A DNA stretch of 32,507 nucleotides from assembly GCA_003501525.1 (NCBI GenBank), contig DNPI01000041.1:1-32507 (forward strand), read 5' to 3'. The notes under the pieces were generated by a model. That model had not been told where the DNA came from. It made no database searches and saw only the letters and a list, made by a program, of their open reading frames with translations. This DNA is from Planctomycetota bacterium. GTDB taxonomy: Bacteria; Planctomycetota; UBA1135. Positions 1 through 21,701 of this stretch are shown piece by piece (the stretch's first letter is position 1; every line of letters starts with the position of its first letter). Both the position numbers and the translations under genes were made by a program.

Positions 1-2
1 GG

Positions 3-323
3 GTGGGAGTGAACGGGCATTTGGCTTTTAATGAACCAGGCTCTGAAGTGGACTCTCGCGCGAGGAAAGTTAATCTTGCGCCAGAAACTCTGGCTCGGAT
101 GCCCGATGGAGTTAACTACAACGAGGCTCTTACTCTTGGGATTGCGGACATTTTGGAAGCGAAAGAGATTCTTTTTGTCGCAACTGGTGCGGACAAAAGT
201 AAAGCCGTTCAGCGAGCCTTAAAGGTTCCACCGTCAGCCGATTGTCCGGCCTCTTTCTTGCAAAAGCATCCATCGGTTACTTGGCTAATTGATGTAGCCG
301 CCGCTTCTCTTCTTCAAGGATGA
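3..323 (+). CDS. nagB: glucosamine-6-phosphate deaminase, C-terminal part (5' end lies outside the window)
   Basis: The ORF is open to the window edge. The translation 'GVNGHLAFNEPGS...ALTLGIADILEAKEILFVATGADKSKAV' matches the conserved NagB active-site block (G-x-NGH-[IL]-AFNEP) and the C-terminal layout of NagB. Stop TGA at 321-323. Confidence 0.8.
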   Translation: MGVNGHLAFNEPGSEVDSRARKVNLAPETLARMPDGVNYNEALTLGIADILEAKEILFVATGADKSKAVQRALKVPPSADCPASFLQKHPSVTWLIDVAAASLLQG

Positions 324-333
324 GGCTTTTCGG

Positions 334-2814
334 TTGAGTTTCGTTCTTGCCCTTGCATTTCTCCAGCAAAATCAACTTGAATGGTCAAGCCTAGCTTCTC
401 TCGAGGGTAACCGCGGATTGGCGGGAATATTTGCAGGGGTTTCAGGGCCCGATCAGTCGCTTCTTATTGCTGGCGGTGCCGATTCCTCTAACGCGATGCC
501 CAGAGAGGGTGCCAATCCAGTGTGGACCGATCAGGTATGGGGTCTGAATGGTTTGGAAGGGGAGTGGGAAAGCGTCGGGACATTGCCCTTTCCTTTGGCG
601 CACGGGAGTTCTCTTCCATGGGGTGACGGTTTTCTTGTACTTGGGGGAAATAACTCGAAGGGAAGCTTGTCTTCAGTCTTCCAACTCCTCTGGGATGGTG
701 AAGTCCTTTCCTTTGAGGATTTTCCCCCCTTGCCGAAACCCTCCTCATTTCACTGTTCAGGGAAAATTGGGACCACTGTTTTTGTCCTTCCGGGCCAGCT
801 GGATTCTCCGCCTGCCGCGTTGATTGATGAGTTCTGGTCTTTCAATCTTGCTCAGCCCGAGACCGGTTGGAAGCGGGAACCTTTGTGCCCCGGAGGGCCT
901 CGCATTAAAGCCTCCGCTGCAGTCCAAACGCTTGGCGACGGCAGAGAAGGGTTTTTTGTCTTTGGCGGGGAACATCCAGAAAAAGGTGTTCTTTCAGACG
1001 CATGGGTTTTTCTCCCCGGTGAAGGGTGGCGTGCTCTTGCCAGTTCCCCTCTTCCAAAATCGGCGGCTGGAATTCACTCAATAGGGCAATCGCATATCCT
1101 TCTTTTTTCTGGAGGAGGAGGTCCTTTGGGAGACCTTCCCCAGCAAAACAATTCGGAGTATCCGTCTGAAGTTTTTGCTTACCACACCATTACCGATACT
1201 TGGGCCCAGAGTGGTGCAATGCCAAGGGGGATGGTTGCTGGACCTTTGATTCAGTGGAATGGAAGTCTAATTCTGATTTCTGAAGAAATTCGGCCCGGGA
1301 TTCGTACTTCACTTTTCCATCGTGCAGAAATGATTAAGGGTAGAGGTGCTCTGACATCTGTTGATCTTCTAATCCTTGTCCTCTACTTGACTCTTTTAGT
1401 AGGCATGGGGATTTATTTTGCGCGGCGAACTCGTGGTAGCCAAGATTTCTTCTTAGCTGGACGGCGGGTTCCGGGATGGGCGGCAGGGTTGTCAATTTTT
1501 GGCACGCAACTTTCGGCGATTACATTTCTGGCGACCCCAGCGTTGGCCTACGCCACGGACTTGCGTTATATCCCGACCTGGATTTCAATACTTCTTGTGG
1601 CGCCATTGATTGTCTATGGATTCTTGCCAATGTTCAGGCGCCTTTCTCTTGCTACTGCCTACGAATATCTGGAGCGTCGATTTTCTCTTGCCGTGAGGAT
1701 GTTTGGATGTTGTGCTTTTCTCATTGCCCAATTAGCTCGGACGGGTGTCGTAGTTTTCCTCCCCTCGCTAGCCCTAGCAACGGTTACGGGATTTGATATT
1801 CGCATCTGCATTCTTTCCATTGGAGTTTTAGCGACTCTATACACAACTTTGGGGGGAATGGAAGCTGTTGTCTGGACCGATGTCCTTCAGGTTTTTGTCT
1901 TGGTTGGAGGCGTTCTGGTGGCATTGGGAATCGCCATTAGCGGAGCAGGTGGTGTTGGTCCCCTTTGGGATCTTGCCCAGAAAGATTCTAAATTTGTTCT
2001 TTGGGATGGCCGTTTTGCTTGGACAGAAACCGCTAGTTGGTCGCTTCTGCTGGGCTCCATTTTCCTGATGATTCCACCATATGCCACTGACCAAGCGATT
2101 GTTCAGCGATACATGAGTACTCCAAATGAGAAGGCCGCTGCCCGGGGGGTTTGGTTAAACGGGTGGCTTTCCATACCTGCTGGGATTTTATTTCCGATTC
2201 TTGGGGCATGTCTTTATGCCTTTTACAAGGCTCAACCGGAAAAGCTCCTTGTGGGAATGCCTAACGATGGGATATTCCCACTCTTTATCGGCGCTGAAAT
2301 GCCGGTAGGTTTGACGGGGTTAGTAATAGCCGGCCTCTTTGCCGCGACGATGTCATCCTTGGATTCCTCAATGCACAGCATCGGAACGGTAGTAGTCAAC
2401 GACTTTCATCGCCGATTTGGGAAACTGCGCGAAGATTCCGAGGTTCTGAAACTTGCGCGCAAATGGACAATGGTGGCGGGCTTTTTTGGTACAGGTTGCG
2501 CTCTTCTCTTTTCCACTTGGGATGTGCGCTCTCTCTTTTTGTTTTTCTTAAAGTCCTTGGGCCTCCTGTCTTCAGGCCTTGCGGGGGTATTTCTATTGGG
2601 CCTCTTTACTCATCGAGCTCATGCTGCGGGAGTCCTTGTGGGAGCGTTCGTGTCAGCCCTCGCCTTGGGCTGGGCATCCATGGCGACCGAGTTGCATACT
2701 TTTTGGTTTGCTTTCGTGGGGATGGGGACCTGCGTTACTGTGGGGTGGTTAGCGAGTTTATTAATCCCAAATCCTGATTGTTCCGACTTTGTGGGAGCAG
2801 AGCCTCCAGCTTGA
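334..2814 (+). CDS. fusion protein: N-terminal Kelch-repeat beta-propeller (NanM/YjhT-like sialic-acid mutarotase family) plus C-terminal sodium:solute symporter (SSS/SLC5 family)
   Basis: 826-aa ORF. TTG at 334 is the first possible start after an in-frame TAG at 295-297. Residues ~1-335 carry repeated Kelch-like blades ('LLIAGGADS', 'FLVLGGNNS', 'FFVFGGEHP', 'ILLFSGGGG'). From ~aa 345 there is a typical SSS signature, 'QDFFLAGRRVPGWAAGLSIFGTQLSAITFLATPALAY', followed by many hydrophobic helices. Confidence 0.75.
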   Translation: MSFVLALAFLQQNQLEWSSLASLEGNRGLAGIFAGVSGPDQSLLIAGGADSSNAMPREGANPVWTDQVWGLNGLEGEWESVGTLPFPLAHGSSLPWGDGFLVLGGNNSKGSLSSVFQLLWDGEVLSFEDFPPLPKPSSFHCSGKIGTTVFVLPGQLDSPPAALIDEFWSFNLAQPETGWKREPLCPGGPRIKASAAVQTLGDGREGFFVFGGEHPEKGVLSDAWVFLPGEGWRALASSPLPKSAAGIHSIGQSHILLFSGGGGPLGDLPQQNNSEYPSEVFAYHTITDTWAQSGAMPRGMVAGPLIQWNGSLILISEEIRPGIRTSLFHRAEMIKGRGALTSVDLLILVLYLTLLVGMGIYFARRTRGSQDFFLAGRRVPGWAAGLSIFGTQLSAITFLATPALAYATDLRYIPTWISILLVAPLIVYGFLPMFRRLSLATAYEYLERRFSLAVRMFGCCAFLIAQLARTGVVVFLPSLALATVTGFDIRICILSIGVLATLYTTLGGMEAVVWTDVLQVFVLVGGVLVALGIAISGAGGVGPLWDLAQKDSKFVLWDGRFAWTETASWSLLLGSIFLMIPPYATDQAIVQRYMSTPNEKAAARGVWLNGWLSIPAGILFPILGACLYAFYKAQPEKLLVGMPNDGIFPLFIGAEMPVGLTGLVIAGLFAATMSSLDSSMHSIGTVVVNDFHRRFGKLREDSEVLKLARKWTMVAGFFGTGCALLFSTWDVRSLFLFFLKSLGLLSSGLAGVFLLGLFTHRAHAAGVLVGAFVSALALGWASMATELHTFWFAFVGMGTCVTVGWLASLLIPNPDCSDFVGAEPPA

Positions 2815-2818
2815 TCTA

Positions 2819-3952
2819 ATGATGTTTGTTTTCTTGTCCGTTTTCATTTTTTCTGTTCAGGATCCGGGGCTCCCGGGTTATTCCATTCCGGTTATTGATA
2901 TAGATTCTGAATTTTTCAGGCATGTTGAAGTAGATCGAGAAGAGGGCCAGTATTTGGGGCATGTAACCACGGCAATGCTCGAGGATGGAAAAACTATTTT
3001 TGCTGTTTATCCGAAAGGTCATGGGAAGGGTGCCATCGTGATGAAGCGCAGTGACGATGGGGGGGAAACTTGGTCAGACCGTTTGCCGACGCCGAAATCA
3101 TGGGCGCATTCAGAGGAGGTCCCGACTCTCTACCGCACCATTGACAGGCAAGGCAAGAGGCGGTTCATCCTCTTTTCGGGCCTTAGAACCATAAAGCGGG
3201 CTTATTCAGAGGATGATGGGAAAACTTGGTCCGAACTGGAGCCCATTGGCGACTACGGAGGCATTGTTTCCTGTGCGGATATGGAAAGGACAGTCGATGG
3301 TCGATATTTTGCACTGTTTCACGACGACGGCCGATTTACGCCGTCCAAATACACTACCCAGGATGGTCACCCTTTCCACGTTTATCAGATATGGTCCGAG
3401 GACGGAGGAATGACTTGGGGAACGCCTCGCACGGTCGCTTCCCATCCGAAGGCCCATTTATGTGAGCCAGGCATTATTCGTTCTCCTGACGGGAGCCAGC
3501 TGGCAGTGCTTTTCCGTGAAAACAGCAGGAAATACAATGGTTTTGTGATGTTTTCGGATGACGAGGGGGAAGCTTGGTCTCAGCCCCGTCAACTTCCCGC
3601 TGCCCTAACCGGAGACCGCCACACAGCTCAATATGCTCCTGATGGTCGACTGTTCATCAGTTTTCGGGATACTACTCGGGAATCTATTACTCAAGGCGAT
3701 TGGGTGGGCTGGGTTGGTAGTTTTGAAGACATCGTGGATGGGCGCGAGGGCCAATACCGAATTCGACTCAAGGACAACAAGCATCGCTGGGACTGCGCAT
3801 ATCCGGGTGTAGAGATTCTCCCGGATGGCACTTTTGTTTGCACCACTTATGGGCATTGGACAGAGGGGCAGTCTCCATGGATTCTTTCGGTACGCTTTAA
3901 GCTAGACGATTTGGATGCTCTCCTTTCGTTGGCACCGCTGGACAAGAAGTGA
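2819..3952 (+). CDS. BNR/Asp-box beta-propeller protein, sialidase-like (GH33-like)
   Basis: Four Asp-boxes (S-x-D-x-G-x-[TA]-W) are present: 'SDDGGETWS', 'SEDDGKTWS', 'SEDGGMTWG', 'SDDEGEAWS'. The ATG at 2819 lies 4 nt after the upstream stop. An alternative TTG at 2789 would overlap the transporter gene. The N-terminus 'MMFVFLSVFIFSV' is hydrophobic. Confidence 0.7.
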   Translation: MMFVFLSVFIFSVQDPGLPGYSIPVIDIDSEFFRHVEVDREEGQYLGHVTTAMLEDGKTIFAVYPKGHGKGAIVMKRSDDGGETWSDRLPTPKSWAHSEEVPTLYRTIDRQGKRRFILFSGLRTIKRAYSEDDGKTWSELEPIGDYGGIVSCADMERTVDGRYFALFHDDGRFTPSKYTTQDGHPFHVYQIWSEDGGMTWGTPRTVASHPKAHLCEPGIIRSPDGSQLAVLFRENSRKYNGFVMFSDDEGEAWSQPRQLPAALTGDRHTAQYAPDGRLFISFRDTTRESITQGDWVGWVGSFEDIVDGREGQYRIRLKDNKHRWDCAYPGVEILPDGTFVCTTYGHWTEGQSPWILSVRFKLDDLDALLSLAPLDKK

Positions 3953-5331
3953 CCCGCCCTCCTCGATTCAAAATTAGAGAAACGGAATTAAATCTCGTCT
4001 CTTGTCATACCCGGATTCCGTTTCGCTTTGGTGCTCACACTTTGACGACTGCGCCATACGCTACGGCGACAGTGACAGTCACCAGCGAGGACGGCGCTGT
4101 TTCCAGGGGGGCGTCTTCAGATCTTCTTATTCCTAAGTGGTTTGAGAAGGATCCGGAGAAAACCCCACAAGAGGACTCCGAGGCCCTTGCTGCCAGTGCC
4201 GCATTAGCCTTTGAGTGTGCAGAGAATCTCGATTCGGCTTCTGTTTTTAGCATTTGGCGTGAAGTGCATCGGACTAGAGTTGAGAGTCAACCCCGTGAAG
4301 CTCCTGACCTCTTAGTGCGGGGATTCGGAGTCGCCCTCTTGGAAAGGGCGTTAATCGACGCTGTTTGTCGACAGCATGCGGTTTCCTTTCATGACGCTTT
4401 GCGGAGTAACCTCTTTGGCTTTTCTCCTGAATCGATTCATCCTGAACTTTCAGGTTGGGATTTGGGCAAGACATTGAGCCCGGCGCCGGCCACCTCAATC
4501 AAAATTCGACATACAGTGGGCCTCCTAGATGCACTGCGGTGTAAACAGGATGAAGCCTTCCACGATGGTTTCCCGAGCTCGCTAGTGGAAGATATTCGTC
4601 ATTATGGGCTAAATCACTTCAAGATTAAATTGTCGGGGGATGAAAGCGAGGATTTGGCTCGACTTAAGTCAATTGCCGCAATTTTCAAATCCGAAGTTCA
4701 AGGGAAGCCGCGTTTCACCTTTGATGGAAATGAACAATTTGAGAGTCTTGTGCCGCTTGCGAATCTATTGGAGAGTTTGGCGGATTCCCCTGAGGGCAAA
4801 GAATTCCTTTCTGGGCTTTTGTTTATTGAACAACCTCTCATGCGGGAGCAAACCTTTAATCCGGATGCACATCGAGACATTGCTCGAGTGGAAGCTTTTA
4901 GCCCGCTACTCGTGGATGAAGCAGACTTTGATTTTTGGGCTTTTCCGGCAGCGGTAGCTGTTGGTTATCGGGGGATATCGGTGAAAGCGTGTAAAGGGAT
5001 TTTCCGTGCACTGCTCAATTTTGGGCTGTGTCAATCCAGAGGTGGGGGCTTATTCCAATCGGGCGAGGATTTGACAAATCTTCCGATTCGGGCACTACAG
5101 CAGGATTTAGCGCTTATGGCGACTCTCAATATTCCCCATGTCGAGCGCAATGGTCACCATTATTTTCGAGGCCTTGATCATTTACCCTCTTCCGTGTCAG
5201 CAGAGGCTCTTCTGCATCATCCAGATATTTACCAAAAAGAGAAGAGCGTTGTCGCATTAAATGTGAACCGAGGCAGGCTGGACATTGCCTCGTTACATTG
5301 CTCCGGATTCGGTTGTGCTGTAGCCCCATGA
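3949..5331 (+). CDS. enolase-superfamily enzyme (mandelate racemase/muconate lactonizing enzyme-like, MLE-subgroup-like)
   Basis: GTG start overlaps the upstream stop (GTGA at 3949-3952). Barrel-domain motifs appear in the expected order: KxK 'HFKIKLSGD' (K225/K227), metal ligands 'FTFDGNEQF' (D259), 'FIEQPL' (E294) and 'LLVDEADF' (D323/E324), then 'ISVKACKG' (second catalytic Lys region). Confidence 0.65.
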   Translation: MTRPPRFKIRETELNLVSCHTRIPFRFGAHTLTTAPYATATVTVTSEDGAVSRGASSDLLIPKWFEKDPEKTPQEDSEALAASAALAFECAENLDSASVFSIWREVHRTRVESQPREAPDLLVRGFGVALLERALIDAVCRQHAVSFHDALRSNLFGFSPESIHPELSGWDLGKTLSPAPATSIKIRHTVGLLDALRCKQDEAFHDGFPSSLVEDIRHYGLNHFKIKLSGDESEDLARLKSIAAIFKSEVQGKPRFTFDGNEQFESLVPLANLLESLADSPEGKEFLSGLLFIEQPLMREQTFNPDAHRDIARVEAFSPLLVDEADFDFWAFPAAVAVGYRGISVKACKGIFRALLNFGLCQSRGGGLFQSGEDLTNLPIRALQQDLALMATLNIPHVERNGHHYFRGLDHLPSSVSAEALLHHPDIYQKEKSVVALNVNRGRLDIASLHCSGFGCAVAP

Positions 5332-6770
5332 AAGATTTTCGCCTGCCCGCTTCTTTTGCCGATGCTGTGGATTTCGATGCTCGTCTGAAAGACATAGACC
5401 CGGCTTTGGGGTGTGACGCTGATTTGCTTGATAAGACTGGGCCTATGGGGCAGTCAATCCAGATTGGCAATAAAACTCTTAGAAACCGCTTCGCCATTCA
5501 CCCGATGGAGGGATGGGATGGTACCCATGAGGGTCTTCCATCAGAAGCGACATTACGTCGCTGGCGGCGATTTGGCTTAAGTGGGGCTTCTTTAATTTGG
5601 GGTGGAGAAGCTTTTGCCGTAGTCCCCGAGGGCCGAGCGAACCCTAATCAACTACATCAGGGGAGTAGCGCCTCTGCTGGTGATGGTCTCAAGGGACTGC
5701 TCAAGGAGCTCTGCATTGGTCGGGAAGAGGCAGGGGTAGAGCAGCAAGATTTTTTTGCAGGTCTCCAATTGACCCATTCAGGCCGATGGTCAAGTCCAAC
5801 CAAAGCAGGGGCATCCCCTCGGATTGCTTATCGACACCCCACTCTTGATGAGAGAGCTGGTGTCCAATCTGATGAGGCAATATTGACTGATGAAGAAATC
5901 GCAGCTCTCCCTGGGAAATACGCGGCTGCTGCTCTTCTTGCCGCAGAAGCTGGATTTGGATTTGTAGATGTCAAATGTTGTCATGGTTATCTTCTCCATG
6001 AATTTCTCTCGGCGCGATCCCGACCCGGGCCTTGGGGAGGAGACTTTGAAGGGAGAACGCGACTATTTCGCGAGATAGTTGCGGCTGTGAGGGAAGCGGC
6101 CCCGGCCATCGAAATCGGAGTTCGTCTTTCAGTGACGGACTTGTTCCCTTTCTCTTCTGGAGAGGAAGGTAGAGGAGAGCCCGACGGCTTGGAAAAGAAT
6201 CTCCCTTATGAAGCAGCTTTTGGCCTTAATCCGGATAATCCTCTCCAGCCTGATTTCGCTGAGCCATTCCGTTTCATTTCTCTTCTTGAGAAGATGGGGA
6301 TATCTCTGATTAATCTGACGGTGGGTTCTCCGTATTACTGCCCTCACGCGCAGAGGCCCGCCGCTTTCCCTCCCAGTGACGGCTACCAGCCGCCTGTAGA
6401 CCCTCTGGAGTCAGTGGCAGCGCATCTGTTGGCAGCTCGAGCATGCAAGGAGGAGTTCCCGCACATGATTTTTGTGGGTTCTGGTTACTCCTATTTGCAA
6501 GATTGGTTGCCTCATGTTGCCCAGAATGAAATCCGCGAAGGCCACGTTGATTTCGTGGGATTGGGGCGGATGGTTTTGTCTTATCCGGAACTGCCGACAG
6601 ATATCTTGGCAGGTCGTCCGTTGCGGAAAAAACAGGTTTGCCGTACTTTCTCTGATTGCACAACTGGTCCGCGAAACGGTATGCCCAGCGGCTGCTATCC
6701 CCTTGATCCTCACTATCGAGGCCTTCCTGAAGCCAAAAGAATCCGGGCTTTACGTCCGCGAAAAAACTGA
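5328..6770 (+). CDS. Old Yellow Enzyme-family NAD(P)H:flavin oxidoreductase (FMN TIM barrel)
   Basis: ATG at 5328 overlaps the upstream stop (ATGA). The six-frame ORF extends upstream to 5298. OYE signatures seen: 'NRFAIHPMEGWDG', 'GFGFVDVKCCHGYLLHEFLSARS', 'DFVGLGRMVLSYPELP'. Confidence 0.75.
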   Translation: MKDFRLPASFADAVDFDARLKDIDPALGCDADLLDKTGPMGQSIQIGNKTLRNRFAIHPMEGWDGTHEGLPSEATLRRWRRFGLSGASLIWGGEAFAVVPEGRANPNQLHQGSSASAGDGLKGLLKELCIGREEAGVEQQDFFAGLQLTHSGRWSSPTKAGASPRIAYRHPTLDERAGVQSDEAILTDEEIAALPGKYAAAALLAAEAGFGFVDVKCCHGYLLHEFLSARSRPGPWGGDFEGRTRLFREIVAAVREAAPAIEIGVRLSVTDLFPFSSGEEGRGEPDGLEKNLPYEAAFGLNPDNPLQPDFAEPFRFISLLEKMGISLINLTVGSPYYCPHAQRPAAFPPSDGYQPPVDPLESVAAHLLAARACKEEFPHMIFVGSGYSYLQDWLPHVAQNEIREGHVDFVGLGRMVLSYPELPTDILAGRPLRKKQVCRTFSDCTTGPRNGMPSGCYPLDPHYRGLPEAKRIRALRPRKN

Positions 6771-6826
6771 GTCGACCTGATCCCCATGCCTTTGAAGGGC
6801 TGCCTAATGCTGCTCCACCTGACCCG

Positions 6827-8170
6827 GTGTCGATTTCTAAGGAAGTTGCTTGGCTCGAATACCAAGAAACGCGGCCCACCTGGAGTCGATGGTTTTCATT
6901 TTTCCGAAAAGGGGGCCCAGGTTATCTGCAGAGCGCTCTTACTTTGGGAGGCGGAACTGCTGCGACCATGCTTTTTGCTGGTGCCGCCTTTGGGTATGGC
7001 TTGATTTGGGTAGCTCCGGTATCGATGCTTCTAGGGATGGTGATTTTTTCCGCTGTAGCCCACCAAACCCTTTCTACGGGCAAGCGACCCTTTTTGGCAA
7101 TGCAGCAGCATGCGGGCCCAGTTTTCGCCTGGGCATTCGCAGGCGGAGCAGTTTTCTCATCCATCATTTGGCATTTTGCTCAATATTCGCTTGGTGCGGT
7201 AGTGTTGGAGGATATGGGCCTAGCTGCTGGGCTTAATATTCCTCGCTGGATTTGTGGCGCAATTATTTTGGCTGTTGCGATTGCGTGGACTTTCGCCTAC
7301 GGCCGCACCCCTCGCCTTCTGGCTTGGTTTGAATTGTCCTTAAAGATTCTGGTCTGGGGGATTGTTGGGTGCTTTGGGCTTGTCGTTTTTCAAACCGGAA
7401 TCCGTGATCCTCTAGCGCTAGTTGCAGGCTTTGTTCCATCATTGCCGACGGGGACGTCTGAGGTATCAGCGCTTACTGTGGTTGTGGGAGGATTAGCGGC
7501 AGCTGTGGGTGCCAACATGCTCTTTCTCTACCCCTATTCTCTCCTTGCGCGGGGTTGGGGTAGGGCACATCGCCGTCTCGCCCGCTTTGACCTTTTCGCT
7601 GGTATGTTTTTGCCTTACTTTCTTGCTACCAGTTTGATGGTAATTGCCACCGCCAATACTTTTTATTACGGAGGCACAGAGTTCTCGGGTATGCGACTGA
7701 GTCCGGTTGAAGCCTCTAAAATTTTGTCAGGATCCATTGGGCCGGTTGTTGGCCGCTTAGTCTTCAACCTTGGAATTTTGGGAATGGCGCTTTCTTCCAT
7801 TATTTTGCAGATGATTTGCTGCGGCTTCGTTGCCATGGAAGTTTTCGGGTTGAAATTCGGCAGCCCTCGTTATCGCCTTGCCTGTCTTCTTCCGGCGCCA
7901 GGCGTTCTGGGAGCGGTACTGTGGACTGATATATCTCTTTGGGTTGCTGTCCCAACGACTCTACTGTGCGGTTTTCTTCTTCCGCTCGCCTATCTTGGAT
8001 TTGTCAGGCTCCAAAGAAGTTCAGTTTATCTTGGCTCCGATCTTCCCCGCGGCCCGAAAGCTACGGCCTGGATTGGTGCGATGCTGGTGGCCATTCTTGT
8101 TTTAGTCGTTTTCTTGGGCTGGAAGGCCGTTGATATCGCCCTACCCGCTTTTATGGGGGGAATTCTTTGA
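6827..8170 (+). CDS. Nramp-fold integral membrane transporter with non-canonical (non-metal?) substrate site
   Basis: GTG start; ~11-12 hydrophobic helices. The N-terminal block 'GPGYLQSALTLGGGTAATMLFAGAAFGYGLIWV' aligns with the Nramp/MntH TM1 block 'GPGFL.S.AYIDPGN.AT..QAGA.FGY'. The metal-binding DPGN is replaced by GGGT (6947-6958). Confidence 0.55.
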   Translation: MSISKEVAWLEYQETRPTWSRWFSFFRKGGPGYLQSALTLGGGTAATMLFAGAAFGYGLIWVAPVSMLLGMVIFSAVAHQTLSTGKRPFLAMQQHAGPVFAWAFAGGAVFSSIIWHFAQYSLGAVVLEDMGLAAGLNIPRWICGAIILAVAIAWTFAYGRTPRLLAWFELSLKILVWGIVGCFGLVVFQTGIRDPLALVAGFVPSLPTGTSEVSALTVVVGGLAAAVGANMLFLYPYSLLARGWGRAHRRLARFDLFAGMFLPYFLATSLMVIATANTFYYGGTEFSGMRLSPVEASKILSGSIGPVVGRLVFNLGILGMALSSIILQMICCGFVAMEVFGLKFGSPRYRLACLLPAPGVLGAVLWTDISLWVAVPTTLLCGFLLPLAYLGFVRLQRSSVYLGSDLPRGPKATAWIGAMLVAILVLVVFLGWKAVDIALPAFMGGIL

Positions 8171-9330
8171 CTCAATCTTCGGTGCGCCTTCCTGAAGGTG
8201 GTGAGTTGATTATCGAGGGCAACCTGCTTTTGCCTTTTGAGGAGGAGCTGGCCGAGCTGGGAGATTCGCCTCCTCCCGTGAGAAAATCTTGGGCAGCCCT
8301 CCAGGTTGTTGTGCAAGGGGAATATGCCACCACGGGTCACTCTTTAACCACCCCAGGCTCGCATGAAGAAATTGGAAAATTTCTCGATTGGGAAGCTACG
8401 ACTGAGCTTCGTCGGAACCTGGGGGCCCAAGGCTTTGGGGTCGCTGAAGCGATGGATACTGCTCAGCGATTTTTCTTGGGTTGGGAGAATGCTCGGCAAC
8501 TTATTGAAAACACCGCTGCCCTTGATCTTCCTTTAGGTTTTGTTGCAGGTGCTAGCTATGACCATTGCCCTTCTCCGTCGAGCTTAGATGAACTATGCGA
8601 TTCAGTTTCTTTTCAGGCTCGTGCAATTGCTGACCTCGGTGGAGTGCCGGTTATTTTGCCGATGCCATGGTTATGTGAAATGGAATGTGGCCCCGAAGAC
8701 TTTGTCGTTGCCTATCGGAAAATCCTCGAAAGTTTGGATTGCTCCGTTTACCTTCACTGGCTCGGCCCAATGTTTTTGCCGGTTCTAGAAGGCTATTTTC
8801 CCAGCGACAGTTTTCAGCGAATAATGGCTTTGAACAGGGAGCAAGTCTTAGGTGTAAAAATATCTCTTTTGGATCCTGTGCGTGAGGTCGCAATTCGCCG
8901 CAGTTTGGCTGAACATGGGCAAGAAACTTTGACAGGCGATGATTTCAACTTTGCGTCCCTCATTGCGGGCGATGAAAAGGGTTTTAGCCACGCGTTGCTC
9001 GGGATTCTTGGTGGTATTTCTCGCCCGGCGAGCCTAGCTTTTCAGTTTTTAGCCCATGGAGCGGAGGACAAATTCCGCCAGTTAATGAATCCATGTGAAG
9101 TGCTTTCTCGCGCGGTTTTTGAATCTCCCACCCAGCACTACAAAGCTGGTTTGGCTTTTCTTTCATGGCTAGACGGGCAGCAACCCAACGCCATGTTGGT
9201 GAATCGCGAAGACCTTGCTCGTGACAAAAATCACCTACTGAGATTGGTGGAACTCGCTATTGCTGCTGGAGTGTTTACTCGCCCCGATTGCGTGGCAGAA
9301 AATTTTTCTAGTTGGTTGGGAACGGATTAG
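8167..9330 (+). CDS. DUF993-like protein (predicted TIM-barrel, function unknown)
   Basis: TTG start overlaps the upstream stop (TTGA at 8167-8170). The block 'LDWEATTELRRNLGAQGFGVAEAMDTAQRFFLGWENARQLIENTAA' matches my recollection of the conserved DUF993 (PF06187) core, 'DWdaTlafRrhLws.GlGVAEAMDTAQRgmGLdW'. This is recalled, not searched. Confidence 0.5.
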   Translation: MTQSSVRLPEGGELIIEGNLLLPFEEELAELGDSPPPVRKSWAALQVVVQGEYATTGHSLTTPGSHEEIGKFLDWEATTELRRNLGAQGFGVAEAMDTAQRFFLGWENARQLIENTAALDLPLGFVAGASYDHCPSPSSLDELCDSVSFQARAIADLGGVPVILPMPWLCEMECGPEDFVVAYRKILESLDCSVYLHWLGPMFLPVLEGYFPSDSFQRIMALNREQVLGVKISLLDPVREVAIRRSLAEHGQETLTGDDFNFASLIAGDEKGFSHALLGILGGISRPASLAFQFLAHGAEDKFRQLMNPCEVLSRAVFESPTQHYKAGLAFLSWLDGQQPNAMLVNREDLARDKNHLLRLVELAIAAGVFTRPDCVAENFSSWLGTD

Positions 9331-11135
9331 CGACCCGCTTTTTGCACTTCAATCTCACTAAACCCGAGAGGGCTTTGACCGACTTCTCCTGTCCAAGCGC
9401 TCAATATTCGCACTTCCAGAGTCTTAATGGAGGTAGTTTTCGGAAGCTTTAGGATTCCTTTTCGATTCTCTTCTTTAGGCATCTCTAAGGAAAATTCGAG
9501 CTTTGAATTTAAGAGAATTAAGAGGTGTCGCGGTCTGGCTAGCCCTTTTCGAAAAGGCATAGTATTTGGGTGGGCAAACATAACCTTGTTAGCTTTTATT
9601 GCAGCGGGCAGGGTTAGGGTAATTGATGGGTTGGGATCGTCAACCTCACACATCCAAGCCGTTTTCAGGTAGGTGTCAGCGGCCAGTTTCCCGGGGTGAG
9701 CACTCTTTTCGCTTGATGTTCGCACTTCGGGAAGAAATCGTTTTAGTAGGTTTTTCTCTCCGTCTTGCGCATATTCAAGCAATTCGTGTTCTAAGACCAT
9801 TTCAATTTTGACCTGAATAATCCCGCTATTGAACAGGCTTTCGGGTGATTCCGCCTCTGCGCGGATTTGAAATTCTCCTGAAGTTCCAAATCGATGTTGA
9901 AATGCAAACCCTTGCGCTGGGTTCTTCTCTTCTTTGAGTAGGCGCCATTCGACGTCGCCTACTTTGCGCCAGAAATAACGAACTATCTCAGGTTGAATTG
10001 GTGGCTTTGAAACCCAGAACGTCATAGGCGTGTCGCCACTAGCGCGAAGAATCAGCTCGCCCTGTTGGGGGGAACTTTCCCAGTGAGGTTGCCCGACTGC
10101 TCCCGACACAGCAGAGGCAGTTGCTCTTCTAAGAAAGAGAAGAGCCATGCTGGTGCCCAGTTCCCCATGTTGCTCTTGTGCGAGGTCGATAGTTTCTTTC
10201 GAGGGTGTCCTATCCCAACTTCCCAGAGAAGTTTGACGTTTTAAGAGCGCAGTCGCTCCTTCTTTGTACCAATCGTGGGCTCCTATTTTTTCAATTCCTC
10301 TGAGTGCTCCTACTCGTTCGTATCCCCAAAGATTGAATGCGCCCCAAGATCGATTAGGGGGATTGCCGGAAGTGACAAAGAAATCGCCTAGCCATTGGAG
10401 ACATTCGATTTGGACTTTTTCCATGGTTTTGCGGTGTCTAGCTGCCAGTCCATCGCCAAGATTTCGTGCACACAATTCAAGAAGAGTGATACCCGCAGCA
10501 GTCATTGAGCCAGATGGCCCTGCCCCAGGTCTGTATGTGAATCCTCGGCGGCGAAGACTCTCTCCAGCTTCATTTTTCACTTCTTCCACGGGAGTGAGAC
10601 AGGACATAGTTCCTGTATAGAGCTTCCTCCAATATTTGGTGGGGATACGAATCCCTGCTTTTTCGCAAGCATCCAATGCAAGTCCGGCGAGAAGTGTGTT
10701 TGATAGATCTTCGTGGCTGTGGCCACTTCCGTAGTCAAAGACACCGCTATCCGGCATCCACGAAAGGAGGTCGCCCGCGAGCTCCTCCATCCACGGTGTT
10801 TTGCTCCGGTCCTGACTCGCTTCCAGCGCGAGAAGCGTAAACCCTGCGCTATAGACTCTTTGCGGGGGACGCGGCTCCATCCACGTAAAAGCTCGCATTA
10901 TGGCTGGATGCTCAGAGGGAACGCCGCACTTAAGCAGTGTGTAGACGACCAATGGGGTAATGCCTGTGGGGTACCATTGGTCGACCCAGCCCCCCCAAGA
11001 CCCATCTAGCAATTGTCGATCGAGTAAAAAGTCGACCCCCTTCTCTATAGCGTCATTCGCTTGCAATCTGAGGTCTTGCCCGTAAAGAGGGCCACTTGCT
11101 GTGCTGAGGCATAGAATCGCCAGAGGGATTTTCAT
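9327..11135 (-). CDS. secreted prenyltransferase/squalene-cyclase-repeat (alpha/alpha-toroid) protein with C-terminal beta-sandwich (discoidin-like) domain
   Basis: Signal peptide 'MKIPLAILCLSTASGPLYGQ'. The N-terminal ~350 aa contain 'LLDRQLLDGSWGGW' and 'LLKRQTSLGSWD' repeats typical of terpene-cyclase/prenyltransferase repeats. The C-terminal ~150 aa ('...IKANKVMFAHP...IKTLEVRILSAWTGE...GFSEIEV') resemble galactose-binding-like domains. Confidence 0.5.
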   Translation of the reverse strand: MKIPLAILCLSTASGPLYGQDLRLQANDAIEKGVDFLLDRQLLDGSWGGWVDQWYPTGITPLVVYTLLKCGVPSEHPAIMRAFTWMEPRPPQRVYSAGFTLLALEASQDRSKTPWMEELAGDLLSWMPDSGVFDYGSGHSHEDLSNTLLAGLALDACEKAGIRIPTKYWRKLYTGTMSCLTPVEEVKNEAGESLRRRGFTYRPGAGPSGSMTAAGITLLELCARNLGDGLAARHRKTMEKVQIECLQWLGDFFVTSGNPPNRSWGAFNLWGYERVGALRGIEKIGAHDWYKEGATALLKRQTSLGSWDRTPSKETIDLAQEQHGELGTSMALLFLRRATASAVSGAVGQPHWESSPQQGELILRASGDTPMTFWVSKPPIQPEIVRYFWRKVGDVEWRLLKEEKNPAQGFAFQHRFGTSGEFQIRAEAESPESLFNSGIIQVKIEMVLEHELLEYAQDGEKNLLKRFLPEVRTSSEKSAHPGKLAADTYLKTAWMCEVDDPNPSITLTLPAAIKANKVMFAHPNTMPFRKGLARPRHLLILLNSKLEFSLEMPKEENRKGILKLPKTTSIKTLEVRILSAWTGEVGQSPLGFSEIEVQKAGR

Positions 11136-12866: not shown

Positions 12867-15542
12867 TTAAAGCGCGATATCCCGAATCCAGATATTGCGA
12901 TAGCGAACAGGGTTCCCGTGATCTTGTAGCCGGAGTGGAAGCTTGGATGGTCCTGCTTTGTATGGCAGAATTTTTCTGTGTGTGGTTGGACCGAGAATTT
13001 CGCGGTTGAAGTGGATAAGGATGCCGTTGTGGAGAGCGGTTATTCGGGCAGGCTCCAGAAGCTCTTTTCCGTTTTCTGAAAATCGAGGGGCCTTAAAAAA
13101 GATGTCATACGATTGCCATTCGCCAGGTGGCTTGGAGGCATTTACATCTGGAGGATGTTGTCCATATATCCCTCCGGCCTGACCATCTGGATATGACCGA
13201 CTAGACCAGGAATCAAGGACCTGAATCTCGTATTTCCCCATGAGGTAGACACCACTATTGCCAATGCCTTGTGACGACCCACCAGATTTTGAGGGAGTTG
13301 CGAATTCAACATGCAGTTGGCAGTCTCCGAAGTCTTGGCGAGTTTGGATGTCACCTGTTCCGTTCACTTCCATGACTCCGTCAATCAGTTTCCATTTTGC
13401 ATCGCCTCCAGAAGACGATGCCCATTTGTCCAGCCCTGTGCCGTTAAAAAGAACTATGGCGTCAGAAGGTGCCGAGGTGCCGGTCCCCGGCTGGACAAAA
13501 TTGGGACTAGGTCGCTGAGAGTCATGCACATGCCATTCGGTTCCAGGAATGAGAGGCGTGTCGCGATATCCCACCGCCGGCTGTCCTGCAGCCGGCGGGG
13601 GATCTTCTTGGAGGAGTTCGCGCACCATTGGCTCAATAGATTCCGCCCATGTTCTATAAGCACCCTCATTAAGGTGCAGTAGGTCGGGCATGACCTCCTT
13701 CGAAAGCCCTCCATTGGTGCTTAAGAAATTCGAACCAATGTCTAAGTAATGGACGCGATTTCTGGATTGAAGGCGCGAGAAAATCTCGTTTGCCCCTTCA
13801 TTTATAAGTCTGTACCGGTTTTCGGCGTTTTCTCCTCTAGGAAAAATCCCTAGGAGAAGAATTTCAGCATTAGGTAATTTTTCTAGTAGTACGGAAGTGA
13901 TTTTCTCTACGCCATTTGCGATGTCTCTGCTGGAATCGCTCCCTGCATTGTTTGTGCCAATCATTACGACAGCTAGTTCCGGGTTTATCCCGTCTAAATT
14001 CCCGTTTTGCATTCTCCAAATGACATGTTGAGTGCGATCTCCGCCAATCCCAAGATTCAATGCGTTGCGGTCCCCATAGAATTTTTCCCAAATCTCTCTT
14101 CCGGCCCCTTCCCAACCTTGAGTGATTGAATCTCCAATCATCACCATCCGTACGCCTCCTTTTGCGGCATTTTCGTTCATCTTCTTGTGTCTCGTTTGCC
14201 ACCATTCATCTTTCCGGTCTACGGGTTTAATGGTTGCAGGTGTTGCAAGTTCCCGGATGAGGACATTCCGGAATTCGATTGGGGCTCCGTGATGTTGGAG
14301 CGCAAGAGGCCCTTCACTTGCGACTCCAGGGAGTTGGGCATTTTCGATGACATTTTTCCCATTTAGAGTGACGGAGAGGCTATCCCCCTCCATTTTGATG
14401 AAAAAGCGATTCCATTTTCCTAATGGGGCGTCCGCGGCTTCGCGTGGAGTGACAGCGGCGCGGACTTCAGCGGGCATATTTGGGTCGGTTCTGTAGCCAT
14501 AGACCTCTCCGCTACCAATGGGCCAGCACCAAATATTGACTTGGCTTTTGCTACTTCCTCGGAGATAGATGCCGCTGTCTCCGGCTTCGTCTACTTCGAC
14601 TTTGAGTTGTCCGCCAGCTTCGTTGACAGCATAGTCGCCATTGGGCAGAACTACCGGGACTTCGACTTTTTTAGAGGGTCCACTCCAGCGCCAATCAGCA
14701 ATTAATTCAAAATCGCCAAAACTGTCTTCGGTCCAGAGAGTGTCGCCTTTGCCGTCGTAAGCGAGCACCCCTCCTCCTGCTTTCCAGTGCCCCTTGTTCT
14801 TCTCTTCAACTTTCCAACCATCGAGATCGATTCCTCCAAACAGTGGAACGAAGCCATTCCCTGGGATGGCAATCTCCTCGGGTTTGAGATCCCCTGAGGG
14901 AGGTAGTTCTCGAATACGCAAATTCCGAAAATGGACCTCGCTGCCCTCGGCTTCTAGGCAAAGGTGCCCTTGTCTGGGTGCGCACGCTTCGCCGCTTGTT
15001 ACTTCTTTGCCGTTAACTTCCAGGCGGAGAGTGCCGTTGTTGCAAGTAACTCGGTAATGATTCCATTCAGGAGCTGGTTTTGTGCGCTCTTCTGTGGGGA
15101 AACTTCTGGAACCGCCATTTGGTCGAGGATTGTGTGGGGTCATTTTTGCTCCCCAGATTGGAAAGACATCGCCGTGGAGCGTGTACCAATTCCCTTTAGG
15201 GCCGGTCATGATTTGAACTTCGACCGCCCGGGCGAAGGGCGTCCCTTTGGCTGGAATCCCATCTGACCATACGAATAGTCCGGCATTCCCATCCTTCTCT
15301 ATGTGTCGCCATTCCATTTCGAGGACAAAGTTTTCATAAACCTTTGTTGTTCGAAGTAGCCCAACTGGATTGCCCGTGCAGATAATCATTCCGTTTTCGA
15401 CTCGGAAGGTTGTGTCGTCACAATTCAAAAGCTCCCATCCGGAAAGATCTTTGCCATTAAAGAGAGGCTCAAAGCCGTCTTCCTGAGCAGCCAAGCAAGG
15501 GGAGCAGAAGGTTACGAAGAGGAGGGGGAGAAGGGGTTTCAT
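12867..15542 (-). CDS. secreted multidomain protein: DUF1080 - DUF1080 - SGNH/GDSL esterase (PAF-acetylhydrolase/sialate-O-acetylesterase-like) - DUF1080
   Basis: Start chosen at ATG 15542 ('MKPLLPLLFVTFCSPCLAAQ' signal peptide), which removes the overlap with the upstream gene. There are three DUF1080 units, each opening with 'LFNGKDLSGW' / 'LFGGIDLDGW' / 'LFNGTGLDKW' and closing with 'HFRNLRIREL' / 'EFRNVLIREL' / 'RYRNIWIRDI'. SGNH blocks are I 'MIGDSITQGW', II 'NLGIGGDRT', III 'MIGTNNAG' and V 'PDLLHLN'. Confidence 0.8.
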   Translation of the reverse strand: MKPLLPLLFVTFCSPCLAAQEDGFEPLFNGKDLSGWELLNCDDTTFRVENGMIICTGNPVGLLRTTKVYENFVLEMEWRHIEKDGNAGLFVWSDGIPAKGTPFARAVEVQIMTGPKGNWYTLHGDVFPIWGAKMTPHNPRPNGGSRSFPTEERTKPAPEWNHYRVTCNNGTLRLEVNGKEVTSGEACAPRQGHLCLEAEGSEVHFRNLRIRELPPSGDLKPEEIAIPGNGFVPLFGGIDLDGWKVEEKNKGHWKAGGGVLAYDGKGDTLWTEDSFGDFELIADWRWSGPSKKVEVPVVLPNGDYAVNEAGGQLKVEVDEAGDSGIYLRGSSKSQVNIWCWPIGSGEVYGYRTDPNMPAEVRAAVTPREAADAPLGKWNRFFIKMEGDSLSVTLNGKNVIENAQLPGVASEGPLALQHHGAPIEFRNVLIRELATPATIKPVDRKDEWWQTRHKKMNENAAKGGVRMVMIGDSITQGWEGAGREIWEKFYGDRNALNLGIGGDRTQHVIWRMQNGNLDGINPELAVVMIGTNNAGSDSSRDIANGVEKITSVLLEKLPNAEILLLGIFPRGENAENRYRLINEGANEIFSRLQSRNRVHYLDIGSNFLSTNGGLSKEVMPDLLHLNEGAYRTWAESIEPMVRELLQEDPPPAAGQPAVGYRDTPLIPGTEWHVHDSQRPSPNFVQPGTGTSAPSDAIVLFNGTGLDKWASSSGGDAKWKLIDGVMEVNGTGDIQTRQDFGDCQLHVEFATPSKSGGSSQGIGNSGVYLMGKYEIQVLDSWSSRSYPDGQAGGIYGQHPPDVNASKPPGEWQSYDIFFKAPRFSENGKELLEPARITALHNGILIHFNREILGPTTHRKILPYKAGPSKLPLRLQDHGNPVRYRNIWIRDIAL

Positions 15543-15556
15543 GGGTTTGAATGCTA

Positions 15557-16474
15557 CTAGTCTTTTGCACATCTGAATCCAGTGTGGTTAAGCCCAGTGT
15601 CAGGGCTTGTTTTCATGCGAGCTCCTGGACGATAGCCAGCGCAGTACAGGTCGCTACAAAGCCAGGACCCTCCACGCATTACGCGTTTTTTGATTCCTGG
15701 CTCCGATGGGTCGAAGGAATCAGTAGGGCCTTTAGGGTTTTTTACTCGGTTTGCAGTAAGAGAATATGCGTCAGGGCGATACCAATCTGCGCACCATTCC
15801 CAGACATTGCCGGCCATGTCTTGGAGGCCCCAACCATTGGCGGGAAAACTTCCCACTGGAGCAGTCCCACTGAAGCCGTCAGTCTTTTTGTCTTTTGAGG
15901 GGAATTCGCCTTGCCATATGTTTGCATACCACTTGCCTCCAGGGTTTTCTTCATTTCCCCAAGTCCAAGGGGCTTTTTCCAGTCCCCCGCGGGCGGCGAA
16001 TTCCCATTCTGCTTCGGTTGGCAATCGTTTTCCTGCCCAGCGCGAAAAAGCGATGGCGTCGTCCCACGAGACGTGGACAACCGGATGATCCATCCTGCCC
16101 TTTAGTGAACTATTAGGCCCTTCTGGATGTTTCCAATTGGAACCTGTTGTCCAACCCCACCAGCTGCCAGGGCCATCCTCGAGTTGCTCCGCACCTAGAA
16201 ACACCACCGATCCGGGGTCATTGGAGGAGAAAGGGATTTCGGCTGTGGTGAGATAGCCCGTGTCGTCAACAAATTTTTGAAATTGAGCGTTAGTGACTTC
16301 TGTCTGGTCCATCCAGAATCCGGAGACGGTTATTTCTCGAGCAGGGAACTCGTCAGGTTGAGCATGAAGGCTGTCTCCTCCCATGGTGAAGGTTCCACCG
16401 GGAATCCAAATCATTCCCTCTGGTTCTCCGCAGGAAACTAGCAGAATCAGGGCAATGCCCTTGACTCGCCTCAT
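15557..16474 (-). CDS. formylglycine-generating enzyme (FGE/SUMF1 family), predicted lipoprotein
   Basis: Lipobox 'LLVSC'. FGE-sulfatase domain motifs 'HPVVHVSWDDAIAFSRWAGKRLPTEAEWEFAARGG' and 'GNVWEWCADWY' are present. The catalytic copper-binding Cys pair is conserved in 'RGGSWLCSDLYCAGYRPGAR' (C273 at 15656-15658, C278 at 15641-15643). The start overlaps the upstream stop (ATGA on the minus strand). Confidence 0.8.
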   Translation of the reverse strand: MRRVKGIALILLVSCGEPEGMIWIPGGTFTMGGDSLHAQPDEFPAREITVSGFWMDQTEVTNAQFQKFVDDTGYLTTAEIPFSSNDPGSVVFLGAEQLEDGPGSWWGWTTGSNWKHPEGPNSSLKGRMDHPVVHVSWDDAIAFSRWAGKRLPTEAEWEFAARGGLEKAPWTWGNEENPGGKWYANIWQGEFPSKDKKTDGFSGTAPVGSFPANGWGLQDMAGNVWEWCADWYRPDAYSLTANRVKNPKGPTDSFDPSEPGIKKRVMRGGSWLCSDLYCAGYRPGARMKTSPDTGLNHTGFRCAKD

Positions 16475-16932: not shown

Positions 16933-16935
16933 AGT

Positions 16936-18276: not shown

Positions 18277-18278
18277 TT

Positions 18279-19409: not shown

Positions 19410-19410
19410 T

Positions 19411-20376: not shown

Positions 20377-20403
20377 TAGTCTGGGGCTTCAGAGAAGCTC
20401 TCC

Positions 20404-21693: not shown

Positions 21694-21701
21694 ATCGTTC
21701 C

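Follow-up and report, generated by a model that had tools for sequence, protein, structure and literature searches.

What does a planctomycete do with an operon that joins the transporter and the last enzyme of a sialic-acid pathway to genes for an enolase-superfamily enzyme, an old yellow enzyme (OYE), an Nramp-fold transporter and a DUF993 protein? This operon occupies positions 1-9330 of contig DNPI01000041.1 (assembly GCA_003501525.1) of a Planctomycetota bacterium; the whole contig, 32,507 nucleotides (nts) long, is called the window below. An earlier note, made from the sequence alone, had proposed that the seven genes form one non-canonical sialic-acid-like or amino-sugar operon, in which the last four genes fill the middle of the Nan pathway between its entry and exit steps. 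The reading favoured here, at a probability of about 0.55, is that the operon is a composite transcription unit made of two modules of separate origins: the remnant of a nan cluster (module A: a DUF1080 gene, nagB, SiaF and a BNR_2 gene) and a catabolic cassette of the sugar-acid type (module B: the enolase-like, OYE-like, Nramp-like and DUF993 genes).

The ORF listing and a reading of the sequence bear out the seven + strand genes and their tight packing, and the junctions given in the earlier note proved exact. The first gene is the 3' end of nagB (3..323), encoding glucosamine-6-phosphate deaminase; it enters the window mid-frame and its C-terminal 106 aa match PF01182 and the NCBIfam nagB model. 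Its stop codon at 323 is followed after a 10-nt gap by the TTG start (334) of a SiaF-type fusion of a NanM Kelch mutarotase with an SSS transporter (334..2814, 826 aa, PF24996 NANM and PF00474 SSF). The SiaF stop at 2814 is separated by 4 nts from the ATG (2819) of a secreted BNR_2 protein of the sialidase fold (2819..3952, PF13088, four Asp-boxes), and the same start is called on an identical contig (L001). The BNR_2 gene overlaps the gene of the enolase-like enzyme (3949..5331) by GTGA at 3949-3952, and the latter overlaps the gene of the OYE-family flavin mononucleotide enzyme (5328..6770, PF00724, E = 1.8e-27) by ATGA at 5328-5331. The starts at 2789 and 5298 in the ORF list are in-frame TTG codons upstream of the genes at 2819 and 5328. 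After the only long gap, of 56 nts, the Nramp-fold (SLC11-like) transporter gene begins with GTG (6827..8170, PF01566, E = 9e-24) and shares a TTGA overlap at 8167-8170 with the DUF993 gene (8167..9330, PF06187, E = 2e-83), whose product is a (β/α)8 (TIM) barrel resembling dihydrodipicolinate synthase (DHDPS) and N-acetylneuraminate lyase. Pfam and NCBIfam thus confirmed six of the seven family calls; the seventh, the enolase superfamily, was established through homologues carrying PF13378, through motifs and through AlphaFold and Foldseek. The operon reaches at least one gene further upstream, as on the identical contig a gene of the DUF1080/3-keto-disaccharide-hydrolase family overlaps the start of nagB, which is there complete and encodes 246 aa. 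At the other end, the unit stops at a convergent gene (9327-11135, -), with an overlap of 4 nts at the stop codon of DUF993. Scans for promoters and terminators gave no signal above that of shuffled controls.

To delimit the modules we analyzed the distribution of the cassette, scanning one genome per species. Relatives of the enolase-like protein were present in 367 species genomes and the best 80 loci of these were analyzed; most are metagenome-assembled genomes (MAGs) of Planctomycetota, and a few carry labels such as Terriglobia, Gemmatimonadota or Myxococcota. Neighbours were counted by tblastn with the seven window proteins; this replaced a naive clustering of the longest flanking ORFs, which was dropped because long antisense ORFs in GC-rich loci confounded it. 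Among the non-redundant loci, 65 had 4.3 kb or more of downstream sequence; the OYE, Nramp and DUF993 genes followed in this order in 47 of these 65, and at least one of the three partners was present in 63. Three long contigs, unrelated in their flanks, each have the enolase-like gene (47-58% identity) followed by the Oxidored_FMN, Nramp and DUF993 genes, and no nan-type gene lies nearby. The conserved order, combined with the unrelated flanks, indicates that the last four genes constitute an autonomous cassette. A SiaF-type gene was found in only 2 of the 54 loci with more than 6 kb of upstream sequence (L009 and L055), and nagB with a BNR gene in 1 of the 54 (L009). Reciprocally, the cassette was found in none of the 65 metagenome loci recovered with the SiaF protein. 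The partners of SiaF in these loci are DHDPS (at least 12 loci), N-acetylglucosamine (GlcNAc) 2-epimerase (5 loci, with two apparent copies of one sequence among them) and an orthologue of the BNR_2 protein (L103 and L111). The last four genes are therefore not co-conserved with the sialidase-like and transporter genes, the very outcome that the earlier note had named as speaking against its proposal.

The origin of the gap in the Nan pathway was revealed by comparison with the nearest relative, Planctomycetes bacterium UBA1135 (68-82% protein identity over the best tblastn segments). Its operon reads DUF1080–nagB–DHDPS–SiaF–GlcNAc 2-epimerase–BNR_2–enolase-like–OYE–Nramp, with 4-nt overlaps throughout; its contigs end early, and the part of the cassette that is visible consists of the enolase-like gene, the OYE-like gene and the start of the Nramp-like gene. 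In UBA1135 a PF00701 gene occupies the position of the nagB–SiaF junction of the window and a PF07221 gene lies between SiaF and the BNR_2 gene, and the gene order of the window is that of UBA1135 minus DHDPS and the epimerase. In the window, no NanA (PF00701) was found among the 28 ORFs scanned with Pfam, and neither a GlcNAc 2-epimerase (PF07221) nor a NanK and NanE pair is present, the SiaF–BNR junction measuring just 4 nts. Because the 10-nt and 4-nt junctions leave no space for a remnant, the "missing middle" of the pathway is a lineage-specific loss at this locus and not a replacement, and the idea that the enolase, OYE, Nramp and DUF993 genes fill it is not borne out. An extension upstream, suggested in order to see whether canonical nan genes precede nagB, did show that the operon continues; the nanA-type DHDPS and the epimerase came to light in the operon of UBA1135 instead, interleaved with the other genes. 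The genes of the operon are intact and constrained relative to UBA1135, with dN values (nonsynonymous divergence) of 0.14-0.24, and SiaF, the BNR_2 gene and nagB are as conserved as the cassette genes; synonymous divergence (dS) between the two is saturated and the usable measures are dN and the absence of stop codons. A locus considered as a closer, epimerase-bearing relative of the window (L122) was rejected, as it is DNA of the UBA1135 lineage with 91% nucleotide identity to contig L092.

Module A is of a known kind. NanM-SSS fusions constitute the SiaF clade of sialic-acid transporters, which occurs in Bacteroidetes, Planctomycetes and Verrucomicrobia (PMC8461474, Severi et al. 2021). The protein of the window has the NANM and SSF architecture of this dedicated type, scores 224 bits against TIGR00813 and has relatives in nan clusters, and it is predicted to transport sialic acid. 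An 8-Mb planctomycete genome shows the arrangement DHDPS–SiaF–GlcNAc 2-epimerase. The succession of a lyase and an epimerase (NanA, then NanE-II/GlcNAc 2-epimerase) is the route of the Bacteroides type. The BNR_2 protein, which the earlier note called sialidase-like, has a PF13088 domain and Asp-boxes, and residues of it align with the second and third arginines and the nucleophile tyrosine of sialidase 8FEB. Its alignments to GH33 sialidases are weak and partial, its N-terminal region cannot be aligned, and in the window as in UBA1135 SIP stands in place of the RIP arginine motif; judged from its residues, sialidase activity is unproven. Orthologues with 63% identity lie within DHDPS–AGE–SiaF clusters, AGE being the GlcNAc 2-epimerase (L103 and L111). 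Going by gene content, the first three genes are a trimmed sialic-acid cluster of the type found in Bacteroides and in the PVC group (Planctomycetes, Verrucomicrobia and Chlamydiae), with which they share SiaF, BNR_2 and nagB (PMC8461474). The window locus differs from such clusters in having lost the lyase and the epimerase, in the SIP motif of the BNR_2 protein, and in the appended four-gene cassette, which is unseen in nan clusters elsewhere.

The first gene of the cassette encodes a protein that had no Pfam, NCBIfam or PDB sequence match in the window; it is its homologues that carry PF13378. Among 27 homologues, K225-x-K227, D259 (in DGNEQ), E294 (IEQP), D323 (DEAD), K346/K349 and an ERNGHH motif are invariant, and the AlphaFold model (predicted local distance difference test, pLDDT, 90.3) places the invariant residues at the ends of barrel strands 2 to 6 and 8. 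Foldseek paired the model, with a probability of 1.0 and at 12-18% identity, with many structures of the enolase superfamily, the nearest being dipeptide epimerase, galactarolactone cycloisomerase, 3,6-anhydro-L-galactonate cycloisomerase, N-succinylamino-acid racemase (NSAR) and mandelate racemase. A profile search aligned the same motifs with dipeptide epimerases and muconate-lactonising enzymes (MLE), weakly (E 0.002-0.02), and NSAR was a weak match too. The protein thus has the attributes of the superfamily: a capping domain and a modified TIM barrel with a KxK motif on β2, a lysine on β6 and metal ligands where β3, β4 and β5 end. The combination of KxK with a β6 lysine is the pattern of the MLE subgroup, which holds racemases, dehydratases and cycloisomerases. 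On the strength of the model and motifs, the product of the fourth gene is a divergent member of the enolase superfamily whose catalytic pattern resembles that of the MLE subgroup.

The DUF993 protein turned out to be more than the plain domain of unknown function that the earlier note had listed, although its assignment to PF06187 stands. It matches PDB 4DNH with E = 1e-59, and its model (pLDDT 95.6) finds 4DNH first in Foldseek (34% identity, template-modelling (TM) score 0.85). Further matches with TM scores of 0.75-0.84 are DHDPS, N-acetylneuraminate lyases, KD(P)G aldolase, keto-deoxy-galactarate dehydratase and L-2-keto-3-deoxyarabonate dehydratase. Lys231 is invariant in the motif G-x-K-x-S-x-L-D and lies on the sixth predicted barrel strand (227-233), which is the β6 lysine in a (β/α)8 barrel that characterizes the DHDPS/N-acetylneuraminate lyase (NAL) superfamily. 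In weak profile alignments K231 pairs with the Schiff-base Lys165 of NanA, and the invariant G257-D258-D259 (TGDD after β7) pairs with the SGDD of DapA; the alignments were used only for residue pairing. The catalytic tyrosine of DHDPS on β5 is not conserved, as W198 aligns to Y137 of NanA with H197 adjacent to it, the β2 motif is AEAMDTAQR and not of the GxTGE type, and the Pfam family is not PF00701. The modelled fold and these residues therefore describe a putative DHDPS/NAL-like enzyme that is not a NanA.

The literature gave no function for DUF993/PF06187, and SMc04132 of Sinorhizobium meliloti, the uncharacterised protein of the same Pfam family whose structure is 4DNH, turns up solely in an expression table. 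In cultured bacteria the DUF993 gene was examined on three plasmids, of Rhodococcus (L094), Sagittula (L095) and Sinorhizobium (L096), where it is annotated as a "dihydrodipicolinate synthase family protein" and is followed by a "sugar phosphate isomerase/epimerase" TIM-barrel gene. All three carry genes for a coenzyme A (CoA)-transferase, an acyl-CoA dehydrogenase, a short-chain dehydrogenase/reductase (SDR) or 3-ketoacyl reductase and an aldo-keto reductase nearby; glycerate kinase is present in two, electron-transfer flavoprotein (ETF) genes in one, and a Gfo/Idh/MocA gene with a sugar ABC transporter in Rhodococcus. This neighbourhood looks like a CoA-dependent sugar-acid cluster. It differs from the cassette in that the partners of DUF993 are an AP_endonuc_2 TIM barrel and CoA-dependent enzymes, with no pairing to enolase, OYE or Nramp genes. 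A lead to the deoxyribonate and glyceryl-CoA pathways was not substantiated.

The transporter is a divergent member of its family, as the earlier note had noticed. It matches PF01566 nearly over its full length and scores 51 bits against the MntH model, for which the cut-off is 430; its best PDB relatives are MntH-type carriers. When aligned to a solved Nramp structure, the DPGN motif of transmembrane helix (TM) 1 is changed to GGGT and the M-P-H motif of TM6 to G-A-N, and both substitutions are conserved in 39 cassette homologues. The Asp, the Asn, the Met and both TM6 histidines of the SLC11/NRAMP metal-binding motif are thus replaced. Even the Mg2+-transporting NRMT branch retains the aspartate (PMC8806188, Ramanadane et al. 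2022), and the replacement of the ligands throughout the family, this residue included, makes a metal substrate unlikely. The small residues introduced would enlarge the central cavity. The protein shares the fold and PF01566 with SLC11/NRAMP transporters, NRMT among them, and differs from them in its ligand residues and in the position of its gene, which lies in an enzyme operon and not in a metal-homeostasis context.

The OYE-like protein has class III OYEs as its best PDB relatives, with several departures that are constant in its family. The invariant motif HPMEGWD places a Glu where YqjM has a Cys, at the position of the Cys or Thr next to the flavin. In the motif K-C-C-H-G-Y a Lys substitutes for the first His of the substrate-binding pair (K-x-x-H versus H-x-x-H/N), the tyrosine of HGY being kept. 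The family shares a conserved SPYYxPHxQRP insertion and a C-terminal three-Cys motif, C-x5-C-x11-C, within the conserved segment CRTFSDCTTxPRNGxxSGCYPLD. This motif may hold a metal or Fe-S site, and it may resemble the Fe-S segment of the FadH/trimethylamine dehydrogenase (TMADH) family.

Variation among the cassettes provides indications on their chemistry and history. In three Phycisphaerales loci (L052:4914-6903, L061:11483-13543 and L029:11479-13502) the cassette retains its enolase-like, Nramp-like and DUF993 genes and has, in place of the OYE gene, a Gfo/Idh/MocA gene and one for a xylose-isomerase-like TIM barrel (AP_endonuc_2). In three further cassette loci (L045, L076 and L079) there is no DUF993, and the OYE gene lies divergently upstream of an enolase–Nramp pair; the two are separated by a TetR regulator gene in L076, and a DUF1080 gene follows the Nramp gene in L045. 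When a replacement for DUF993 was sought in variants that do without it (L045, L074 and L076), just DUF1080, the TetR regulator and unrelated genes were found. An Isosphaeraceae MAG (L055, 4369-14393) carries DHDPS–SiaF–SSF–enolase-like–OYE–Nramp-like genes without DUF993, the SSF stop overlapping the start of the enolase gene. The SSF–enolase–OYE–Nramp part of this variant is also present on two contigs that are cut off upstream (L062:195-6407 and L067:1-5712), and in all three the Nramp-like gene is more divergent (33-35% identity) and DUF993 is missing. In a distance tree, the enolase-like protein of L055 lies far from the clade of the window, whose nearest members have no nan genes, and the cassette has thus joined DHDPS–SiaF genes at least twice.

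The flanks of the cassettes are otherwise heterogeneous, and neither an aminotransferase nor an aldehyde dehydrogenase recurs beside them. The exception is a gene for a DUF7133-cytochrome c protein, divergently upstream in about 10 of the 62 cassette loci lacking nan genes, often with DUF1080 alongside. The protein, which combines DUF7133, HEAT and cytochrome c domains in about 830-860 aa, was seen in L092 (5198-7684, -), L007, L027, L028, L065, L074, L081 and L084; a possible role is that of a periplasmic dehydrogenase that feeds the cassette. The operon of UBA1135 is likewise divergent from such a gene. Its presence upstream of both the UBA1135 operon and cassettes without nan genes suggests that the nan genes were inserted before a pre-existing cassette.

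From the families, folds, conserved catalytic residues, gene order and conservation observed above we infer a substrate class and an order of steps for the cassette, and likewise any metabolic link between the two modules. In module A, SiaF would take up sialic acid following its periplasmic mutarotation by the NanM domain, and NagB would carry out the final step of amino-sugar catabolism; the NanA-like lyase and the GlcNAc 2-epimerase have been lost from the locus in the window lineage. The cassette, for its part, probably imports and degrades a sugar-acid-like carboxylate by a non-phosphorylative route. The Nramp-fold carrier would import an organic carboxylate, for which sugar acids, lactones and anhydro-sugar acids are the likeliest candidates. 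The enolase-like enzyme would abstract the α-proton at its Mg2+ site and, by β-elimination or ring opening, generate a 2-keto-3-deoxy acid, which the DUF993 protein would then bind as a Schiff base via Lys231 and cleave or further dehydrate. The OYE-like protein would act on an enone or keto intermediate in a flavin-dependent redox step. In several non-phosphorylative sugar-acid routes, a dehydratase or cycloisomerase of the enolase superfamily works together with an aldolase or dehydratase of the DHDPS family. The pairing of superfamilies in the cassette is that of the galactarolactone cycloisomerase of Agrobacterium tumefaciens (4HPN) with keto-deoxy-galactarate dehydratase (4UR7), and of the route with 3,6-anhydro-L-galactonate cycloisomerase (5XD9); among the Foldseek neighbours, the 4HPN and 5XD9 enzymes belong to the enolase-like protein and the 4UR7 enzyme to DUF993. 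The cassette differs from these routes in that identities are 12-18% and DUF993 is a separate Pfam family without the catalytic Tyr, and the routes have neither an OYE-type flavoenzyme nor an Nramp-fold transporter.

Three other accounts of the locus have to be weighed against the composite one. That all seven genes form one integrated pathway for a nonulosonic or ulosonic acid (Neu5Ac2en, 2,7-anhydro-Neu5Ac or the deaminated sialic acid KDN), with DUF993 as a NanA-type lyase and the enolase-like and OYE-like pair processing an unsaturated or anhydro intermediate, is close to the alternative sialic-acid route of the earlier note, and we regard it as unlikely. Part of that proposal keeps some force: DUF993 has the NanA/DHDPS fold with its β6 lysine and is the sole DHDPS-superfamily gene in an operon with intact SiaF, BNR_2 and nagB genes, and L055 has a canonical DHDPS and no DUF993, as if the two were interchangeable. 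The cassette was moreover fused to DHDPS–SiaF genes in two distant clades, by 4-nt overlaps at the BNR–enolase junction in the window and at the SSF–enolase junction in L055. The Gfo/Idh/MocA enzyme that replaces the OYE in some cassettes belongs to the family responsible for converting anhydro- and dehydro-sialic acids in Escherichia coli (PMC7315737, Kentache et al. 2020). There YjhC/NanY (NanOx) form an accessory route for dehydrated sialic acids beside the nan genes (PMC7315737); the likeness is at the level of the family. The cassette of the window has an OYE-type enzyme instead, and YjhC needs no partner of the enolase or DHDPS type. What the integrated account does not explain is the autonomy of the cassette, no nan gene being near it in 52 of the 54 loci and the cassette being absent from all 65 SiaF loci. 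Furthermore, UBA1135 has a canonical NanA and epimerase beside the visible cassette genes, so that no replacement took place there, and the cassette brings its own transporter. Enolase chemistry requires a proton α to the carboxylate, and sialic acids have none at C2. About 0.5 chance adjacencies to SiaF are expected in 54 loci, on a rough guess at the number of SiaF paralogues in a planctomycete genome, which may be several, and the 2 observed are suggestive and not significant.

A different substrate for the cassette, an amino-acid-type carboxylate such as a hydroxyproline-like imino acid, a betaine or an N-acyl amino acid, likewise appears improbable. In such a scheme the enolase-like protein would act as a 2-epimerase or racemase, the OYE/TMADH-like protein as an amine dehydrogenase yielding an imine, DUF993 as a DHDPS-type deaminase as in 4-hydroxyproline catabolism, and the LeuT-fold Nramp protein as the importer. 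The MLE-subgroup-like pattern of KxK and β6 lysine agrees with it, as do the dipeptide epimerases and N-succinylamino-acid racemases among the nearest neighbours in sequence and structure, and the Glu beside the flavin together with the Cys-rich C-terminus that may resemble TMADH/FadH. The DHDPS family also includes pyrroline-4-hydroxy-2-carboxylate deaminase. The replacement of the OYE by Gfo/Idh/MocA and a xylose-isomerase-like TIM barrel in some cassettes, the sugar-type partners of DUF993 in cultured bacteria, and the recurrence of DUF1080 and DUF7133-cytochrome c dehydrogenase-like genes favour sugar or sugar-acid chemistry over that of amino acids, and the lack of a recurring aminotransferase or aldehyde dehydrogenase beside the cassette tells in the same direction. 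Least credible to us, and very improbable, is that the adjacency has no meaning, a decaying nan cluster standing before an unrelated operon in which the Nramp-like protein would be a cation transporter supplying or exporting metal for the Mg2+-dependent enolase-type enzyme. The absence of nanA and the epimerase gene relative to UBA1135, the usual independence of the cassette from nan genes and the fact that Pfam still files the transporter as Nramp fit this account; the intact state of SiaF, BNR_2 and nagB, which are as well conserved as the cassette genes, and the stop/start overlaps joining the two modules do not. A role of the Nramp homologue in metal supply was rejected on the loss of all ligand residues, which extends to the whole family; even NRMT keeps the aspartate (PMC8806188).

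The composite account with a sugar-acid cassette has its own difficulties. No member of the cassette is characterised, and the literature gave no paper describing this combination of genes, so that the remark of the earlier note that no characterised pathway has such a content still holds. The role of the OYE-like protein is the weakest step of the proposal. The MLE-type pattern is also compatible with racemases or epimerases of amino-acid derivatives. When compared by hhalign, the DUF993 profile and the single NanA and DapA sequences gave a probability of about 1% or less; as these scores are statistically weak, the equivalence of K231 with the Schiff-base lysine is drawn from the fold and the strand position. 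The known genome amounts to 32.5 kb, so nanA and the epimerase gene could sit elsewhere. Finally, two independent, translationally coupled fusions to DHDPS–SiaF genes hint that the modules may be metabolically linked. A bolder version, in which the cassette encodes an undescribed catabolic route, an SLC11/Nramp-fold carrier has switched from metal ions to an organic acid, DUF993 is a new Schiff-base lyase branch and, with NanA and the epimerase gone from the window lineage, the cassette took over a sialic-acid-related sugar acid there, seems doubtful to us.

The surroundings of the operon, to judge from gene families, are typical of a glycan degrader of the PVC group, the remainder of the window encoding sulfatases, formylglycine-generating-enzyme (FGE)-like proteins, Gfo/Idh/MocA oxidoreductases and DUF1080 proteins. 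The convergent gene at 9327-11135 (-) encodes a secreted protein of 602 aa in which prenyltransferase/squalene-cyclase-like repeats and an NADase-type glycan-binding (discoidin) domain are both weak matches. The 901-aa product of 12867-15572 (-) combines a GDSL/SGNH esterase domain with three stretches of the 3-keto-disaccharide-hydrolase (DUF1080) type; it could fit a sialoglycan theme, as SGNH esterases include sialate O-acetylesterases. Positions 15557-23249 carry two FGE-sulfatase-family genes, two Gfo/Idh/MocA oxidoreductase genes, ApbE and one sulfatase gene, a neighbourhood for the degradation of sulfated glycans of the kind typical for PVC bacteria. It is followed at 23246-27226 (-) by the gene of a 1326-aa protein with a reprolysin-like metallopeptidase and F5/8 type C, bacterial Ig and LamG domains.

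In conclusion, the value of the locus lies in the cassette, the first three genes being ordinary members of a described transporter family and cluster type. Relatives of its enolase-like gene are present in at least 367 species genomes, mostly of marine and other Planctomycetota, and no published function was found for its four genes. If the proposal is true, DUF993 (PF06187) would gain a testable DHDPS-like Schiff-base role, the divergent enolase branch would gain a genomic context, and the Nramp/SLC11 fold would gain its first candidate non-metal substrate. The window and its sister lineage moreover offer a natural experiment, one operon being available with and without NanA and the epimerase. 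Planctomycetes rank among the main degraders of algal and marine polysaccharides, and a sugar-acid route that had gone unrecognised in these bacteria would bear on marine carbon turnover.

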